Source: a virus
Lineage: Duplodnaviria > Heunggongvirae > Uroviricota > Caudoviricetes
Length of the DNA: 45,850 nucleotides
Reading direction: 5' to 3' (one strand)
IMG/VR virus record: IMGVR_UViG_650377933_000003
Positions 28,129-41,095 of this stretch are shown piece after piece; position 1 is the first letter of the stretch, and each line of letters begins with the position of its first letter. A model generated the notes under the pieces. It saw only the letters and a list, made by a program, of their open reading frames with translations, searched no databases and had not been told where the DNA came from. The position numbers and the translations under genes were made by a program.

Positions 28129-28399
28129 GATGTTACCGTAGTATGTGAGTATCCATCGAATAGACACCAAGCAAAAAAGCTCCCGAAGGAGCCTTCATTT
28201 TCACTTTTTTAAATCCAACGACAGACGGCTGGCATTTAAGTATTGTGAAATATTATCAAATGTAATCATCATTGATTTACAAAAGATACATTTTGCCCCG
28301 AAAGGATTCATGTCAGAAACATCAAAAGATGATGTTCTATACTGGGAACCATGACAACACGGGCATCTAAAGTGAATATGGTTTGTAATATTGTCTACC

Positions 28400-28612
28400 T
28401 CAAAGCGCCACTACATGAACAGCGGCAGGACCTTTAGGTCCGTTCTCAATACCAAATTCAACTTCCTGATTCTCAGTTAATGTTTTGAAATCGTTGCTCT
28501 GAATTGCTGAGAAATGGACAAACACATCTTTGCTGCCATCTTTCGGCGTGATGAAACCAAAACCTTTTTCAGGGTTAAACCATTTCACTAAACCAGTCAT
28601 TTTGTTAGACAT
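28400..28612 (-). CDS. cspI: Cold-shock protein (CspA family), CspI-like
   Basis: 70 aa; [23 protein letters not shown]... with RNP1/RNP2 motifs (KGFGFI, VFVHF). Confidence 0.85.
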
Positions 28613-28975
28613 AATTATTACCTTTTGAAGAAATTAGCCCTTGGGCAGAATGGTCCGAAAAAAAAATATCAGAGAGAAAAACCAACAAGGAAATCTCAAG
28701 AGGTACAAATAATAAAATTATAACAATGACTGCTTCAGATAAATTTGTAACAAACCAGAACACCATTAACGCATGATTAACCACCCATAGCAAGGATTAC
28801 TTTTGTAAAGAAAAACACAGCAATGAAAGAATAGCTTTATTTATTAATAAAACGTGTCATTCTGATTAAGACCTTTTATCTTACCCTTAAGATTTCAGGA
28901 ATTTTGGCTCATGGAAGCGTCCTTTTTATTTAAATTTTACATTCCGCGATGTAAATGTTCCGATTTAATATTACC

Positions 28976-31006: not shown

Positions 31007-31284
31007 ATTGTGGTGCTTTTTGTGGGAGTCATCCACTTACGCACTTTGTTTTGCCATGCCAGCAGTTAGCTTCTGCTGTAAAACTATTCATGCAGCAAAC
31101 CTGCACTTCACCACAATGGTTAGCATACTTTCCCTGATTAAGATTTTGCCAAATATGCTGGCCATTGTTTCATGTATTGGACCTCCTTAATTTTTATTAA
31201 AGAAATCCAATATTCACTACTCTGTCCGTATCTCTACTCAGGCATCAGCCTTCTTCGTTATCGTATACAGACGAGCGATGAATT

Positions 31285-31500
31285 TTAATCAGTAATGATG
31301 ACATTTGCTGCTGCAGGACCTTTAGCACCACTCTCTATAGAGAAGGTAACCTTTTGACCTTCAAATAAGGTTCGATAATTATCATTCTGAATCGCAGAAA
31401 AATGCACAAACACATCTTTACTACCATCAACAGGAGAAATAAAGCCGAAACCTTTATCAGCGTTAAACCATTTTACTAAACCAGTCATTTTATTTGACAT
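31285..31500 (-). CDS. cspB: Cold-shock protein (CspA family), CspB-like
   Basis: 71 aa; [23 protein letters not shown]... Confidence 0.85.
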
Positions 31501-31800
31501 TCTACATTCCTTAACTTGAGCCTTTCGGCATAAATGGTTTGCATAACAGAAACGACTTCGTACTTAATTGGAGAGACTCAAAGAAGGAATAAGTGAATAA
31601 CACCTGAAATGAGAACTGCTTTAGTAAACTACTTCGTATATCGTCTGTTCTTCAAACCGACGCAATCATTAACGCATAGTTGAACATATGAAGCAATGTT
31701 TATTTTAGACATCCAGCCATCTTCAACCCCATCAAAAAACTATAGCTTTCTTCAGGAACGTGTGTATAGTGCGCCAAGTTATCAGTATTAAGGAATTTTT

Positions 31801-35064: not shown

Positions 35065-35220
35065 TTACTCCTCAGGTTCGTAAGCTGTGAAGACAGCGAC
35101 CTCCGTCTGGCCGGTTCGGATTCGTACCTCGCAGAGGTCTTTCCTCGTTACCAGTGCCGTCACTATGACGGTTAAACAGATGACGATCAGGGCGATTAAC
35201 ATCGCCTTTTGCTGCTTCAT
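35065..35220 (-). CDS. hokD: Hok-family membrane toxin (HokD/RelF-like, 51 aa), type I toxin-antitoxin
   Basis: MKQQKAMLIALIVICLTVIVTALVTRKDLCEVRIRTGQTEVAVFTAYEPEE matches recalled HokD; conserved hok mRNA-like flanks. Sok antisense RNA and mok were not mapped. Confidence 0.85.
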   Translation of the reverse strand: MKQQKAMLIALIVICLTVIVTALVTRKDLCEVRIRTGQTEVAVFTAYEPEE

Positions 35221-35492
35221 AGCCTGCTTCTCCTTGCCTTTCGGCACGTAAGAGGCTAACCTACATGTGTCTAGCATGAAATTGGCCTCAGATTAATGTT
35301 AAGCGTCTTGCAGGACGCGTAATGTTAACTGGGGCTTTTCTCTATCTGCCTTTGGTGTTCATGCCCGAGGCAGATAGCCTCAAGCACCCGCAGCCATTCT
35401 ACTTAACTACCTTTACCTCGCCAATATGAAATCAGTCAGAAAGACGATCCATAAGAACAATAGCAAGATTTCTTAATGGAGATGGATGTAAG

Positions 35493-36980
35493 CTAAATAT
35501 TTTGGCTCGGTCTGCTTTCTATTAAATGCAACCTGTATTTTAAAGCATGATGTGTCCTAAACTCATTTTGTAGATTAATTTTTAAGTTAGGCAAACTACT
35601 TACGTATTCCCATCTACCTTGTTTTTTTTGTCCGATAAGTGAGTTATCAAACAGGAAGTTGATATATTGACGTATCACCCCATCAGAAATACCTGCAAAT
35701 TCATTACGGCACTTCTCGGAGAAATCATTAAAATCGAATGTTTCTACTTGGATAGTTTGAAGAACAGTTAGTAAGTTCTCAATTTCAGGGAATTGGTTGG
35801 ACCATTCATCAATCACCTCATTGTACACACTTATAGATGCTTCACGGTCAGCTTCATAAAGCTCATTGGAAGTGTAAAGACCTGAGACATTATTTTTATG
35901 ACATGCCCTAATTTTGTTGAAGTAGACAATAATATCCCTAGGCCTAAAGAAAGAACGGCGACATATATATTTAAATGGAGGAGTCCCCTGCCTAACGAAT
36001 GAAACCTCAAATACTTTCCCAGATCTGTCCTTTTCGTCATCTAATATGAGATCATTAGGTTTGTATTTCTTTATCCTCTCATAATACATATCGTTTAGAT
36101 TATTTTCATTCCATGAGATTATGATAGCACTATCTTGCAATAATTTGTTTTTATCATTGAATTTCAAAGAATGATAAATATCCGTTCGTAGGAAGGGAAT
36201 GACTTTTAATTTATCATTGAGGCGTTCATCAGATGCTATGTTTCTACAGACATTTAGCAGATTTATTAAAACCTTACTATATTCTTCAATTTGCCCCTCT
36301 AGCCAGTTTTCGTCTAATTGGTCAAGGGCGATAATTATTTTTTCATTACCAATGTTATCTTTAAAAATTTTTTCAAAATACGTAAGCAATGTGAAAGCAT
36401 TAGCTCTTAGCTTTTGCTTTAGCTGAGCATTCTCAGCAACTTCCTCTAACGAAATTTCACCTGCGTCCAATGATACTTCATTAAGACCAGCACTGGGCCC
36501 TTTTATGGTTTTTAATCTGGTTATTTTTGAAAACAAAACCTCCCTAAGAGTTGGGTCGGGACTACCAAAGATAGTTTTGATATAATTATGTGCCCACGTT
36601 AGATCTTTGTTTAAAGTCTCTCCAGCATCATTTTTTATTTCAATAAGTTTAGATAATGCCTTAATATAAAAAAGATACATCCAACTTTTTTGATAAGCGG
36701 AAAGTTCTCCAGCCATTGCATCCTTGTAAAGTTGATGGGCTGGCCATGGATAGTCACTAAAATTTAGACATACTGAGTAAAACCCGTTGAGATTGGCTGG
36801 TTTTCCTCTTCTAAGGTGTTCATAAATGGCTGTTTTACCAGTACCTTTTCTTCCAAGAACCAACCAAGCCCTACTTTCAATAATATCCTTTATCGCCGGT
36901 AGCTTAAAAAAATAGGTCTGTAAGTCCCGATCTGTTTCTGCTGAAACTTGAAATTCTGGTAGCCAGTCTCTAATGTCCAC
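35493..36980 (-). CDS. P-loop NTPase of unassigned family (495 aa), NACHT/STAND-like Walker motifs; candidate defense cargo
   Basis: Walker A LVLGRKGTGKTAIY (aa about 41-54); Walker B-like KIIIALDQLDENW (aa about 214-226); GTG start with AAGAGGA 5 nt upstream; gene and flanks visibly AT-rich versus neighbouring phage genes. Confidence 0.8.
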   Translation of the reverse strand: MDIRDWLPEFQVSAETDRDLQTYFFKLPAIKDIIESRAWLVLGRKGTGKTAIYEHLRRGKPANLNGFYSVCLNFSDYPWPAHQLYKDAMAGELSAYQKSWMYLFYIKALSKLIEIKNDAGETLNKDLTWAHNYIKTIFGSPDPTLREVLFSKITRLKTIKGPSAGLNEVSLDAGEISLEEVAENAQLKQKLRANAFTLLTYFEKIFKDNIGNEKIIIALDQLDENWLEGQIEEYSKVLINLLNVCRNIASDERLNDKLKVIPFLRTDIYHSLKFNDKNKLLQDSAIIISWNENNLNDMYYERIKKYKPNDLILDDEKDRSGKVFEVSFVRQGTPPFKYICRRSFFRPRDIIVYFNKIRACHKNNVSGLYTSNELYEADREASISVYNEVIDEWSNQFPEIENLLTVLQTIQVETFDFNDFSEKCRNEFAGISDGVIRQYINFLFDNSLIGQKKQGRWEYVSSLPNLKINLQNEFRTHHALKYRLHLIESRPSQNI

Positions 36981-37297
36981 ATTTTCCTCTTTACATTACA
37001 TTACCTTTATGTTTTTCCAAAATAAATCAAAGTCATATGGCGTATCAAGTTTTTTTGATTATTTATGAGCTCATACTCAAAAAAATACTAAATCTAATTT
37101 ATCTTACGTTAACTAAAGATTTCATATGTTAGTATGCTCAAGCAATGCTACTGCTGGAGTCTGATGATATCCGTTATACACTAATTGCCACGCACACAAG
37201 CGACATCAGTTCATGGCACAAAGCAGACAACCACGCTACCTCTACCCTATGCCATGAAAATGTCAATTTACATCTTAACTAATGCACTTTAATCTCG

Positions 37298-37720
37298 TCA
37301 CTTAAATAGATACCGAACATTTCCCTGATAAAACGACAATATGCGCTGCATAACTTCGCTCTTCCGGCACTCGCGACAGATTATGTTTAGACGACTGTCG
37401 TAGCGACGTATTTCTCCATCAGGTAGTGACCAGATAAGGTCCGGATCAACCACAGCGGGTTTCTTCACCTTCGCCCTAGAGAGTTTTTTGCGGGCATTTT
37501 GCCAGTCCTTTCGTGCCTGTTCAGACGGGAATAACCCGTAGCCGGAGTTGTATACATAACCACTGGCAACCAGCTCTCTGGCAAGAATGCTCATCAGATA
37601 TCTTGTCGCACCTGTTTTAGCTTCCAACTGTCGTAATGTCTCGCGACCGCTCTGGCGCACAAGTTCGACCACCTGCTCTTTAATTTTTTCCCGCTCTTCC
37701 TGTGTAAAAACTTTTGCCAC
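37298..37720 (-). CDS. Hypothetical protein (140 aa) with winged-helix-like segment, downstream of the replication initiator
   Basis: GTG start with AAGGAGG 5 nt upstream; segment RETLRQLEAKTGATRYLMSILARELVASGYV resembles a wHTH; basic C-terminal half. Confidence 0.5.
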   Translation of the reverse strand: MAKVFTQEEREKIKEQVVELVRQSGRETLRQLEAKTGATRYLMSILARELVASGYVYNSGYGLFPSEQARKDWQNARKKLSRAKVKKPAVVDPDLIWSLPDGEIRRYDSRLNIICRECRKSEVMQRILSFYQGNVRYLFK

Positions 37721-37760
37721 AAGTCCTCCTTAAAATTACCTCATGACCTGAAATCAACAC

Positions 37761-38726
37761 TTATCCCCTGAAACCAGGCGGAATTTCTGTATCCGGTTCA
37801 GAAATATGATTCACACAACGCTGTACAGGTGAACGTCCCAAGCGGATGACCAGTTCGTCCCATTTTTCGCGGAGTTTTGACGGGCTCATGATGTTTTTTA
37901 CCCAGAATGGATCTCGCTGTACCCGACCAAACATTTCGCAAATTTGTCTGTGGCTTCTGCCATCCAGCATCCGCATTGTGCGCACGTCATTGGCCCAGGC
38001 TGTCCAGTTAGGCTCTTTTGGTCGCATGATCTCTCCATCGTCGCTGGCAGCCTGTTCGTAAAGATTCACGATCCGCCCCCAAATCCACTGCGCACACGCC
38101 AAATCCTCCCTGCTACCCCACTGGCGTTTTTTCGCACTAAACACAACCGCGTCGGGGTTCCGGGTTAAAAAATCCTGTTCAGCGGTCTGCGGGTCCGGTT
38201 GCGAAGCTTCCGGACGAAAAGTGTTTTTATTCTCTGTAGTAATCTCTGTTGTATTCTCTGTAAGATCATCAGGCCATTTTGACCCGATGACATTGGGTCG
38301 TTTTGAACCAATGGAGCGTTTCATTTTGACCTCTTCCATCGTGTCATTTTGACCTGATGGAGCGGCGCATTTTGAACCGATGGATTCGTTCAATTTGCCA
38401 CCATCTAAAAGCTCGCTCCCATAGTTGATCGTGTAGAAATTGGTCATATCGCGCTTTGATTTATTGAGCTTTTCACAACGCAAAAGCCCCAGCGTTTTCA
38501 GACTTGCAAACGCGCGCTTTAACGTTGACTCTGACCAGAATGGGAACTGTTCCAGCCATTGTTCCGTTGTGTTGTAAATCCAGCGAACACCATCACATTC
38601 CATGCCGGAATTGGTATCTCTCAACCAGTAATGCAACTGCTGCAACACAATGGCTTCATTTAAGCCAATCTTCATCGCAAGCTGTGTGTTTATAACCAGT
38701 GGGCGTTCAGCAAAAAGAAGGCTCAT
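37761..38726 (-). CDS. Replication initiator (lambda O-like replisome-organiser N-terminal domain) containing in-gene iterons
   Basis: N-terminal ...PLVINTQLAMKIGLNEAIVLQQLHYWL... is typical of phage replisome organisers; internal repeated peptide IGSK corresponds to DNA iterons. Start at the ATG at 38726 (ORF track extends to a TTG at 38780). Confidence 0.7.
   Translation of the reverse strand: MSLLFAERPLVINTQLAMKIGLNEAIVLQQLHYWLRDTNSGMECDGVRWIYNTTEQWLEQFPFWSESTLKRAFASLKTLGLLRCEKLNKSKRDMTNFYTINYGSELLDGGKLNESIGSKCAAPSGQNDTMEEVKMKRSIGSKRPNVIGSKWPDDLTENTTEITTENKNTFRPEASQPDPQTAEQDFLTRNPDAVVFSAKKRQWGSREDLACAQWIWGRIVNLYEQAASDDGEIMRPKEPNWTAWANDVRTMRMLDGRSHRQICEMFGRVQRDPFWVKNIMSPSKLREKWDELVIRLGRSPVQRCVNHISEPDTEIPPGFRG
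38275..38402. repeat. Iteron array (about six copies of CATTTTGA[C/A]C at roughly 23-24 bp spacing), putative phage origin
   Basis: Direct repeats at about 38275, 38299, 38322, 38345, 38369 and 38391, inside the initiator gene. Confidence 0.65.
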
Positions 38727-39228
38727 AATTCCATCCAGCTTTTTGTTGGTATTGCAGTCGATACGCAAGTTTGAAAGCAATTGCTTTTTCTATAAGTTCG
38801 TCAGTTTCACGATCCACTACGGCAGGATCAGCAAAAAGCAGTCCGGACTCCACCACATCGCCATATTCTTTGTTTAACCCGGCGATCATGTACGTGATGC
38901 TTTTTCCGTCACTAATTTCACGATACAACCTGAAATCATTAATCCGGATAGCCTCCATAATTGCAGGCACTAGCGCCGTGAACTTTTCACGCTTATCCCT
39001 AGTGTCGATAGCCTTCCAGCGTTCGAATATCTTCACTCGATTAACGCCAAGCGCTCGCTGATCAACCGCGCCACCTTCATCTGTGACACGCTGAACATCG
39101 ATGTTCGGGCGCTCTTTCAAAGCCCAGAATGCTTCAGTGATTAATATCGTCGCCTGCTCCTGTGTCATTCCTGGTCGACATATCCAGGCATCCAGAGCCT
39201 CACGAGCCTGTTCAGGAGTGATTTTCAT
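38707..39228 (-). CDS. Hypothetical early-region protein (173 aa) between dicC and the replication initiator
   Basis: ORF with ATG start and small overlaps with both neighbours; CII/YdaT-like position; no homolog recognised. Confidence 0.5.
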   Translation of the reverse strand: MKITPEQAREALDAWICRPGMTQEQATILITEAFWALKERPNIDVQRVTDEGGAVDQRALGVNRVKIFERWKAIDTRDKREKFTALVPAIMEAIRINDFRLYREISDGKSITYMIAGLNKEYGDVVESGLLFADPAVVDRETDELIEKAIAFKLAYRLQYQQKAGWNYEPSFC

Positions 39229-39439
39229 TGTTCAACCGCCCCGCCCGCTTCGTCTTACGATATTCGTCATAAACTTTGGGATCATACTGAAGCTCCCCGC
39301 CAGATGCCTCCTGTAGACGCATCGCGCGACCTTCAGGAACCAGTATCCCCCAAGCAGCAACACTTGCCAGTCTCACTCCTGCGGCATTGGCAAGCTTTGT
39401 TTTGCTGCCAAAAAAAGTAATTGCGTCAGCTTTAAGCAT
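39212..39439 (-). CDS. dicC: Cro-like repressor DicC
   Basis: ATG at 39439 with AGGAGG upstream; MLKADAITFFGSKTKLANAAGVRLASVAAW...RAMRLQEASGGELQYDPKVYDEYRKTKRAG matches recalled DicC. Confidence 0.85.
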   Translation of the reverse strand: MLKADAITFFGSKTKLANAAGVRLASVAAWGILVPEGRAMRLQEASGGELQYDPKVYDEYRKTKRAGRLNNENHS

Positions 39440-39452
39440 CAAAGCCTCCTAT

Positions 39453-41042: not shown

Positions 41043-41095
41043 TTTCTGGTGACGTTTGGCGGTATCAGTTTTACTCCGTGACTGCTCTGCCGCCG
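41043..41095 (+). ncRNA. dicF: DicF small RNA (ftsZ-targeting)
   Basis: TTTCTGGTGACGTTTGGCGGTATCAGTTTTACTCCGTGACTGCTCTGCCGCC matches the recalled DicF sequence, ends in a GC stem and is followed by a T-run; between the ydfB-like gene and dicB. Confidence 0.7.

Follow-up and report, generated by a model that had tools for sequence, protein, structure and literature searches.

The window analysed here is a 45,850-nucleotide stretch of Caudoviricetes DNA (IMG/VR record IMGVR_UViG_650377933_000003) that is 100% identical to E. coli O83:H1 NRG 857C, where the prophage is a Qin-type lambdoid element at the ynfA/rspB site. Its genes run in the order antiterminator, DUF968, rem, hokD, a 495-aa P-loop ATPase, DUF977, O-like protein, YdaT-like protein and Cro/CI. 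The ATPase gene is the subject of this work. Its product is almost certainly a divergent relative of Fun(Z), a phage P2 protein annotated as blocking the growth of phage T5, and it probably serves to protect the lysogen from other phages. The open reading frame (ORF) and its ribosome-binding site are as follows.

35493-36980, minus strand: 495-aa ORF assigned to the Fun(Z)/Sll1717 family of AAA+ P-loop ATPases, WP_000354584.1 (ORF list, NF047389, phrog_13260, RefSeq annotation)
36985-36991, minus strand: Shine-Dalgarno sequence AAGAGGA, 4 nt upstream of the GTG, read from the sequence

An earlier note, made from the letters of the window and a list of its ORFs, had described a GTG-initiated gene with a strong Shine-Dalgarno sequence, a Walker A and a Walker B motif. 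All of these were recovered: the GTG lies at 36978-36980, the Shine-Dalgarno sequence is separated from it by a 4-nt gap, Walker A (GRKGTGKT) occupies residues 43-50 and Walker B (IIIALDQLDE) residues 215-224, with the D-x-h-D-E form present. The GTG start is credible because the N-terminus (MDI..W) is kept in 39 homologs, and D2 and W6 are invariant in their alignment. The AT-richness remarked on in the same note was also seen, with a GC content of 0.351 in the ORF (0.306 at third codon positions, GC3) and 0.334 upstream, against 0.47-0.50 (GC3 0.47-0.52) in the flanking phage genes. At all 20 loci examined (the window and 19 homologous loci, L002-L035) the gene is AT-rich, with 27-41% GC, and lies below its flanks by 1 to 20 points, P2 fun(Z) included. 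Since this holds in every host examined, AT-richness is a trait of the family, beyond this locus alone.

Assignment to a family came from profiles. The protein matches NF047389 of NCBIfam ("P-loop ATPase, Sll1717 family") over its full length with 250.4 bits against a cutoff of 75 (residues 13-484, profile positions 5-454 of 454), and phrog_13260 with an E value of 7.6e-34 (residues 14-485, profile positions 14-490 of 497). P2 Fun(Z) falls into the same two models, scoring 209.3 bits on NF047389 and 706 bits on phrog_13260. Compared directly, the two proteins are 18% identical; BLASTP aligned them over 357 aa (E 4e-7), with Walker A, Walker B, LRTDIY/IRPDIF (window ATPase/P2 Fun(Z)) and RPRDI brought into register, and hhalign gave 95.7% with an E value of 1e-8 over 401 columns. 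A bridging member (P0125) is 36% identical to the window ATPase and 24% to Fun(Z), and the window ATPase has all 12 invariant columns of a 52-sequence alignment that takes in P2 Fun(Z), Bacillus "FunZ" and a Lactococcus phage CAP protein. It was the "FunZ" label on Bacillus plasmid homologs, found by tblastn of plasmids, from which the link began, and the profile tests came afterwards; a tblastn search of 50,697 phage genomes at E 1e-5 returned Lactococcus phage CAP as its sole match and missed P2 itself.

On the strength of these profile, BLASTP and hhalign matches, there is very little doubt that the window ATPase is a divergent member of the Fun(Z) family. The earlier note could place the protein in no described defense family, which no longer stands for a full-length member of NF047389 and PHROG 13260 alongside P2 Fun(Z), and "undescribed" is too strong a word for a protein that shares its family with an annotated T5 blocker.

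Fun(Z) is one of the three classical lysogenic-conversion genes of P2. Its GenBank annotation reads [quoted passage not shown], FUdR being 5-fluorodeoxyuridine. Z/Fun has been entered as "phage exclusion", and the Z region is one of three horizontally variable regions in P2-like phages (PMC3091744); the Z/fun locus has also been cited as a site where antiviral defences occur (PMC13586616). In the literature searched, no mechanistic study of the Fun(Z)/Sll1717 family was found and neither "Sll1717" nor WP_000354584.1 was mentioned, while an exact-word search on FunZ yielded annotation mentions only. The window ATPase was not among the proteins of the DefensePredictor and Rousset 2022 supplements searched.

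The likeness between the two genes extends beyond sequence. P2 Fun(Z) (AAD03288.1) is of similar size (528 aa against 495 aa) and can be aligned with the window ATPase at Walker A, Walker B, R-x-D-I and RPRD. Both are single non-essential genes in a horizontally variable slot of a temperate phage, and both are AT-rich relative to their surroundings (32.8% GC for fun(Z) against 51.3% in P2; 35% against about 48-50% for the window gene). They differ in subfamily, as the best representative match of Fun(Z) is 24% whereas the clade of the window ATPase is 61-89% identical internally. They also differ in slot, with the window gene between hok and the replication genes of a lambdoid prophage and fun(Z) between the tail operons of P2, and in orientation, fun(Z) opposing its neighbours whereas the window gene runs with the early-right operon. 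P2 Fun(Z) has a tested phenotype; the role of the window ATPase is predicted from kinship.

Conserved motifs and predicted structure were then located along the protein. The AlphaFold model, built on 39 homologs, has a mean predicted local distance difference test score (pLDDT) of 74.5 and a predicted template modelling score of 0.73.

36831-36854, minus strand: Walker A GRKGTGKT, residues 43-50; G43, K45, G46, G48 and K49 are invariant among 52 diverse members
36344-36744, minus strand: helical insertion of about 130 residues (about 79-212) between beta2 and Walker B in the model, with the invariant W100
36309-36338, minus strand: Walker B IIIALDQLDE, residues 215-224, on model strand 214-220; the whole family keeps D220 and D223 unchanged
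36180-36194, minus strand: FLRTD, residues 263-267; the sensor-1-like R265 ends strand beta4, and the motif aligns with IRPDIF of Fun(Z)
35934-35945, minus strand: RPRD motif of the lid domain (residues 346-349), matched by YRPRDI of Fun(Z) in the alignment
35604-35783, minus strand: predicted winged-helix-like module, residues about 400-459, three helices followed by a beta-hairpin
35493-35600, minus strand: C-terminal tail, residues 461-495, pLDDT below 50, yet conserved

The modelled strands follow the canonical AAA+ order: beta1 (40-43), the P-loop, beta2 (67-73), the Walker B strand (214-220), beta4 (258-264, ending at R265) and beta5 (285-288). In the 52-member alignment the Walker A glycines and lysines, W100, D220, D223, R265, W290, P347 and R348 are invariant, and D267, R346 and D349 are nearly so. 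The nucleotide site is thus what the family conserves at its core. The RPRD motif is probably sensor-2-like. Residues about 400-459 are modelled as H400-408, H417-427, H433-445, E449-451 and E457-459, a probable C-terminal winged helix. These features replace the earlier picture of some 270 motif-free C-terminal residues, as R265, RPRD and the winged-helix-like module all fall within that part of the protein. Within the tail the subfamily keeps 12 positions unchanged, and H477 and L480 hardly vary across the whole family.

In structural comparison the model fits AAA+ proteins of the Arch_ATPase and ORC/Cdc6 types best and STAND proteins less well, and its nearest structural neighbours are AAA+ proteins bearing a winged helix. 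Proteins that share this fold form assemblies on DNA or signalling oligomers. The predicted AAA+ core, lid and C-terminal winged-helix-like fold agree with the Orc1/Cdc6 layout, which points to an ORC/Cdc6- and Arch_ATPase-like core. The helical insertion would sit where ORC, Cdc6 and DnaA carry the initiator-specific motif, with which those proteins contact DNA. The likeness to SSO1545 (2fna), PAB2304 (2qen) and Orc1/Cdc6 amounts to 10-16% identity with no profile-level membership; the window ATPase differs from these archaeal ATPases and Orc1/Cdc6 in adding the insert of about 130 residues and the conserved C-terminal tail, and its context is phage cargo, whereas that of Orc1/Cdc6 is replication initiation. 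The BFVD viral fold library gave weak generic AAA+ matches from giant viruses; as it contains nothing resembling Fun(Z), it did not confirm the kinship structurally, and a PDB sequence search with the window ATPase gave nothing relevant.

Other ATPase and defense families were searched by profile. Pfam gave no significant family (AAA_16 reached E 0.04 and 14.9 bits against a cutoff of 32.6); a Methyltransf_34 match (0.029) was set aside as spurious, and the KAP NTPases, considered for their RPRD-type motif, had no Pfam profile support. ORC-CDC6-like PF24389 did not match the window ATPase, and its relatives stayed below the cutoff of 27, at 16-24 bits. Nor does the protein contain a nuclease, protease, TIR, SIR2 or transmembrane module. 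PADLOC-DB 2.0.0 holds no full-length model for the window ATPase, nor one for P2 Fun(Z); because it lacks a model for the family, prophage and defense surveys that rely on catalogues of this kind would leave these genes unlabelled. Its one weak partial match, to the candidate PDC-M28C (E 4.1e-5), spans Walker B to sensor-1 (residues 212-304), and distant family members match that candidate somewhat better, to E 4.6e-8. PDC-M28 is a multi-gene candidate system, whereas the window gene has no conserved partner.

The setting of the gene in the prophage is defined by the following features.

35065-35389, minus strand: left flank, hokD (35065-35220) and mok/sok (Rfam sok 35215-35389) by annotation and RF01794 at 118 bits
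35469-37213, no strand assigned: AT-rich cargo segment (GC 0.345) swapped in related E. coli prophages, from homology breakpoints
36981-37297, minus strand: upstream intergenic region of 317 bp, with a promoter-like site at 37048-37019 (TTGATA, 18 nt, TATTTT) that is not above chance
37298-37720, minus strand: right flank, DUF977 gene, last of the replication/early-right module by annotation and ORF list

The gene thus lies between hokD/sok, where the sok region is intact, and the DUF977 and O-like genes, in the hok-to-replication position given by the earlier note, whose statement that K-12 Qin carries relBE here was accurate (relE-relB stand directly upstream of hokD). Homology to prophages with other cargo ends at 35468 and returns at about 37214, and these breakpoints therefore delimit a cargo segment of 1.7 kb. 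At least seven alternative cargos occupy the slot in E. coli (compared with loci L013, L014, L015 and L036): relBE; QueH with or without a methyltransferase; an alpha/beta hydrolase; DUF7167 with small ORFs; KilA-N; an S-adenosylmethionine methyltransferase; and a 340-aa hypothetical protein. Of the cargos scanned, the 340-aa protein and the hydrolase, neither had a PADLOC match. Comparison across related prophages, a check which the note had proposed, thus found the flanks kept and the cargo swapped, and its suggestion of separate acquisition agrees with a horizontally gained, AT-rich, single-gene cargo in a variable prophage slot. The gene does not belong to the core replication or packaging set of the phage, as related prophages in which the O-like and DUF977 genes are the same have different cargo.

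Among 5,426 complete E. coli genomes the gene was found in 43, always on the chromosome and with copies at least 99% identical. The whole hokD-ATPase-DUF977 stretch is present in 41 of them, and the other two have a truncated copy only (NZ_CP069710.1, H128, and NZ_CM142774.1, H129). In two of the 41, both Shiga toxin-producing strains (NZ_CP041433.1 and NZ_CP041429.1; H5, H6, H126, H127), the gene is split by insertion sequence IS3. Such split or truncated copies indicate that the gene is dispensable and sometimes decaying in E. coli.

Elsewhere in the window, a helicase-loader gene of the DnaC type is missing from the early-right module (37298-39442), whose genes are Cro/CI, YdaT-like, O-like and DUF977. 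Rfam gathering thresholds were passed by two thermoregulator leaders of the cspA type and by the DicF small RNA (28373-28759, 31269-31661 and 41044-41095), all of them ordinary features of Qin prophages.

The 317-bp length of the upstream region agrees with the roughly 320 bp noted earlier, and the promoter that had been supposed to lie there fared less well. Promoter-like hexamers are at chance level (9 found against 7.8 +/- 2.6 in shuffled sequence), and the upstream sequences of the Klebsiella and Serratia copies show no conservation with it. A promoter moving together with the gene was rejected, as nucleotide homology between genomic contexts is limited to the ORF; the flanking spacers are always about 100-900 bp. 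A scan of the spacer between DUF977 and the ATPase gene found no terminator-like site.

Homologs with 61-89% identity were found in Klebsiella, Proteus, Serratia, Vibrio, Nitrosomonas, Methylophaga, Arcobacteraceae, Sulfuricurvum, Flavobacteriia, Pontibacter, Bdellovibrionaceae and two Patescibacteria, and copies with 49% identity in Ignavibacteriaceae, Leptospiraceae and an unclassified Pseudomonadota genome. Across phyla the subfamily is 61-71% identical, with 156 of 495 positions invariant. The Patescibacteria/Magasanikbacteria copies (L027 1031-2509 and L035 7001-8479) are 62-63% identical to the E. coli protein, and a host range reaching the candidate phyla radiation (CPR) is unusually wide for so conserved a gene.

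No conserved partner gene was found across the homolog neighbourhoods examined, and the carriers vary. In Serratia the gene is carried by a P2-like prophage, with gpA on one side and ogr/portal on the other; P2 itself has old and tin at this position, which has been described as an antiviral hotspot (PMC9122126). The Klebsiella homolog stands between P2-type tail operons, and that of Lactococcus phage CAP follows the lysin gene. In V. cholerae the homolog (71% identical) comes directly after a filamentous-phage module (DUF3693, Rep_trans, DUF1293, Zot) beside rtxA (L003 7573-9485, L004 1263-3166, L005 270-2182) and may be cargo of a dif-integrating element; an ORF of 94-97 aa is conserved about 130 bp upstream of it in all three contigs. 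Other copies occur near AbiTii, TacAT, BrnTA, integrases, ParE, Drt2, DarG and PD-T4-6.

The wider family comprises 2,549 clusters at E <= 1e-3 (clustered at 50% identity), mostly of 470-520 aa. Rare members have EAD7 adaptor domains, a C-terminal GT4-conflict glycosyltransferase or N-terminal cold-shock domains, EAD7 being an effector-recruiting domain (PMC7159879). One EAD7 member is in a tight operon (gaps of 19-29 bp) followed by a DUF499 (BrxC/PglY-type) gene, and a member with a cold-shock domain lies near an AbiEii toxin gene (L037 350-4028 and L038 2-4211 for these EAD7 and cold-shock members), from which some branches of the family appear to act within multi-gene systems. Proteins of Enterobacteriaceae conjugative plasmids (H147-H159), labelled "DNA repair protein" or hypothetical, share about 25% identity confined to residues 217-410, the stretch from Walker B to the lid.

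Taken together, we consider it rather probable that the window ATPase is a stand-alone AAA+ moron of the Fun(Z)/Sll1717 family which protects the lysogen from other phages. The anti-phage role that the earlier note had guessed is the likeliest function, given the kinship with P2 Fun(Z) and the recurrence of the gene in phage cargo and defense slots. Like P2 Fun(Z) against T5, the protein would exclude or abort infection by other phages.

As to how it might do so, we put forward one specific mechanism, ATP-dependent assembly on a nucleic-acid or nucleoprotein target, as a tentative idea that may well be wrong. After infection, the ATP-bound protein would oligomerise, as ORC/Cdc6, MuB/TnsC, RdrA and STAND proteins do. 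The assembly would form on a conserved nucleic-acid or nucleoprotein target, contacted through the winged helix and through the large helical insertion, which would correspond in position to the initiator-specific motif. Early phage DNA transactions could then be blocked or the cell arrested, the ATPase assembly itself being the effector. The extreme conservation across phyla suggests a universal target rather than a fast-evolving phage protein, and the FUdR phenotype of Fun(Z) is, speculatively, a hint at DNA or deoxynucleoside triphosphate (dNTP) stress.

Several observations weigh against a protective role or this mechanism. The 18% identity to P2 Fun(Z) leaves room for a different function. 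The protein lacks an effector domain that could supply an output, and 61-71% identity between phyla with 156 of 495 positions invariant is atypical of immune sensors. DNA binding and oligomerisation are deduced from fold neighbours only, and the C-terminal 35 residues of the model are of low confidence. Expression in the lysogen is presumed, the promoter scan being at chance level. The PDC-M28C likeness is all that PADLOC 2.0.0 offers, the defense-gene neighbourhoods lack a matched control and are anecdotal, and hok genes in general are not enriched near known defense systems (hok preprint).

Of the alternatives, the one that survives best is that the gene alters host physiology by lysogenic conversion (nucleotide or DNA metabolism, stress tolerance), any effect on phages being secondary or absent. 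Sensitivity to FUdR conferred by P2 Fun(Z) would fit this, as would conservation of the kind expected for engaging a universal cellular component and the metabolic-looking cargos of the same slot (QueH, the alpha/beta hydrolase, methyltransferases). We nevertheless regard it as unlikely, as the sole relative with a tested phenotype blocks a phage, the gene recurs in phage defense hotspots and near abortive-infection and toxin-antitoxin genes, and the EAD7 and GT4-conflict fusions within the family are marks of conflict systems.

It is also rather improbable that the protein is a previously undescribed NACHT/STAND-type receptor, which would sense a phage protein through its C-terminus and signal by oligomerisation. 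What stood of the NACHT/STAND-like label given earlier is the form of Walker B, with the second acidic residue present, and STAND proteins are among the structural matches. The label is nevertheless a loose one: no NACHT, NB-ARC or other STAND profile in Pfam matches the protein, and Arch_ATPase and Cdc6 outscore STAND proteins structurally. The effector and sensor architecture of STANDs is lacking as well, since the AAA+ core, lid, winged-helix-like module and short tail fill the 495 aa, leaving neither an N-terminal effector nor a C-terminal repeat sensor. A described relative moreover exists in P2 Fun(Z). BrxC (BREX), RdrA (RADAR) and the Avs/NLR-like STANDs have partner genes or effector and sensor domains, whereas the window ATPase stands alone with neither, and it matches no BrxC, RdrA or Avs profile.

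A third reading has the protein act on other mobile elements or for its carrier, by exclusion of temperate or filamentous phages or plasmids or by stabilisation of the prophage. The variety of carriers (lambdoid and P2-like prophages, the Vibrio filamentous-phage module, the vicinity of conjugative-element genes), the adjoining hok/sok addiction module and the distant homologs on conjugative plasmids are in its favour. It seems a poor prospect when set beside Fun(Z), which acts on T5, a virulent phage, and nothing ties the gene functionally to hok, as a cassette border runs between them and hok accompanies many cargos.

An accessory replication protein of the prophage, that is an ORC/Cdc6- or DnaC-like initiator or helicase loader, is very improbable: the Cdc6/ORC-like fold (with TnsC/MuB also matched structurally), the same-strand position at the end of the early-right replication operon with no terminator-like site in the preceding spacer, the want of a DnaC-like gene in the prophage and the Serratia copy following gpA might suggest one, but TIGR02928 (Orc1/Cdc6) reached E 0.12 and 11.2 bits against a cutoff of 181, no DnaC or lambda P type helicase-loader profile matched (Pfam, NCBIfam, PHROGs), composition is foreign to the replication module, other copies lie among tail genes, after a lysin gene or in chromosomal islets, and a loader role was rejected on distribution, the gene occurring in just 43 of the 5,426 genomes and most prophages that share its O-like and DUF977 neighbours doing without it, with unrelated cargo or none here.

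What is new here is a member in a distinct, highly conserved subfamily; the Fun(Z) phage-exclusion family itself is known, and in kind the gene is ordinary, a prophage moron related to a classical exclusion gene. The label "P-loop ATPase, Sll1717 family" nonetheless becomes a testable annotation, that of a relative of P2 Fun(Z), which is the classical P2 lysogenic-conversion gene for which the literature searched holds no mechanistic study. The E. coli copy, near-identical in 43 complete genomes, is a convenient and tractable member for work on mechanism. Two questions follow, namely how an AAA+ ATPase that has no effector domain stops a phage, and whether the Qin-type hok-to-replication slot is a defense hotspot like those of P2 and P4.

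The family is large and spread across many phyla and mobile elements. A bolder proposal, which we hold to be doubtful but worth stating, is that Fun(Z)/Sll1717 ATPases make up a large and mostly uncatalogued class of immune AAA+ proteins, spread across phyla, resembling ORC/Cdc6 and devoid of effectors, in which ATP-driven assembly on invading DNA or on a universal component of replication or nucleotide metabolism would stop infection. The T5 block and the FUdR sensitivity that go with P2 Fun(Z) hint that the signal may be DNA degradation or collapse of the dNTP pool, and, if this were true, the readout of so universal a signal in place of a phage-specific protein would explain the conservation of the protein from E. 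coli to the CPR.

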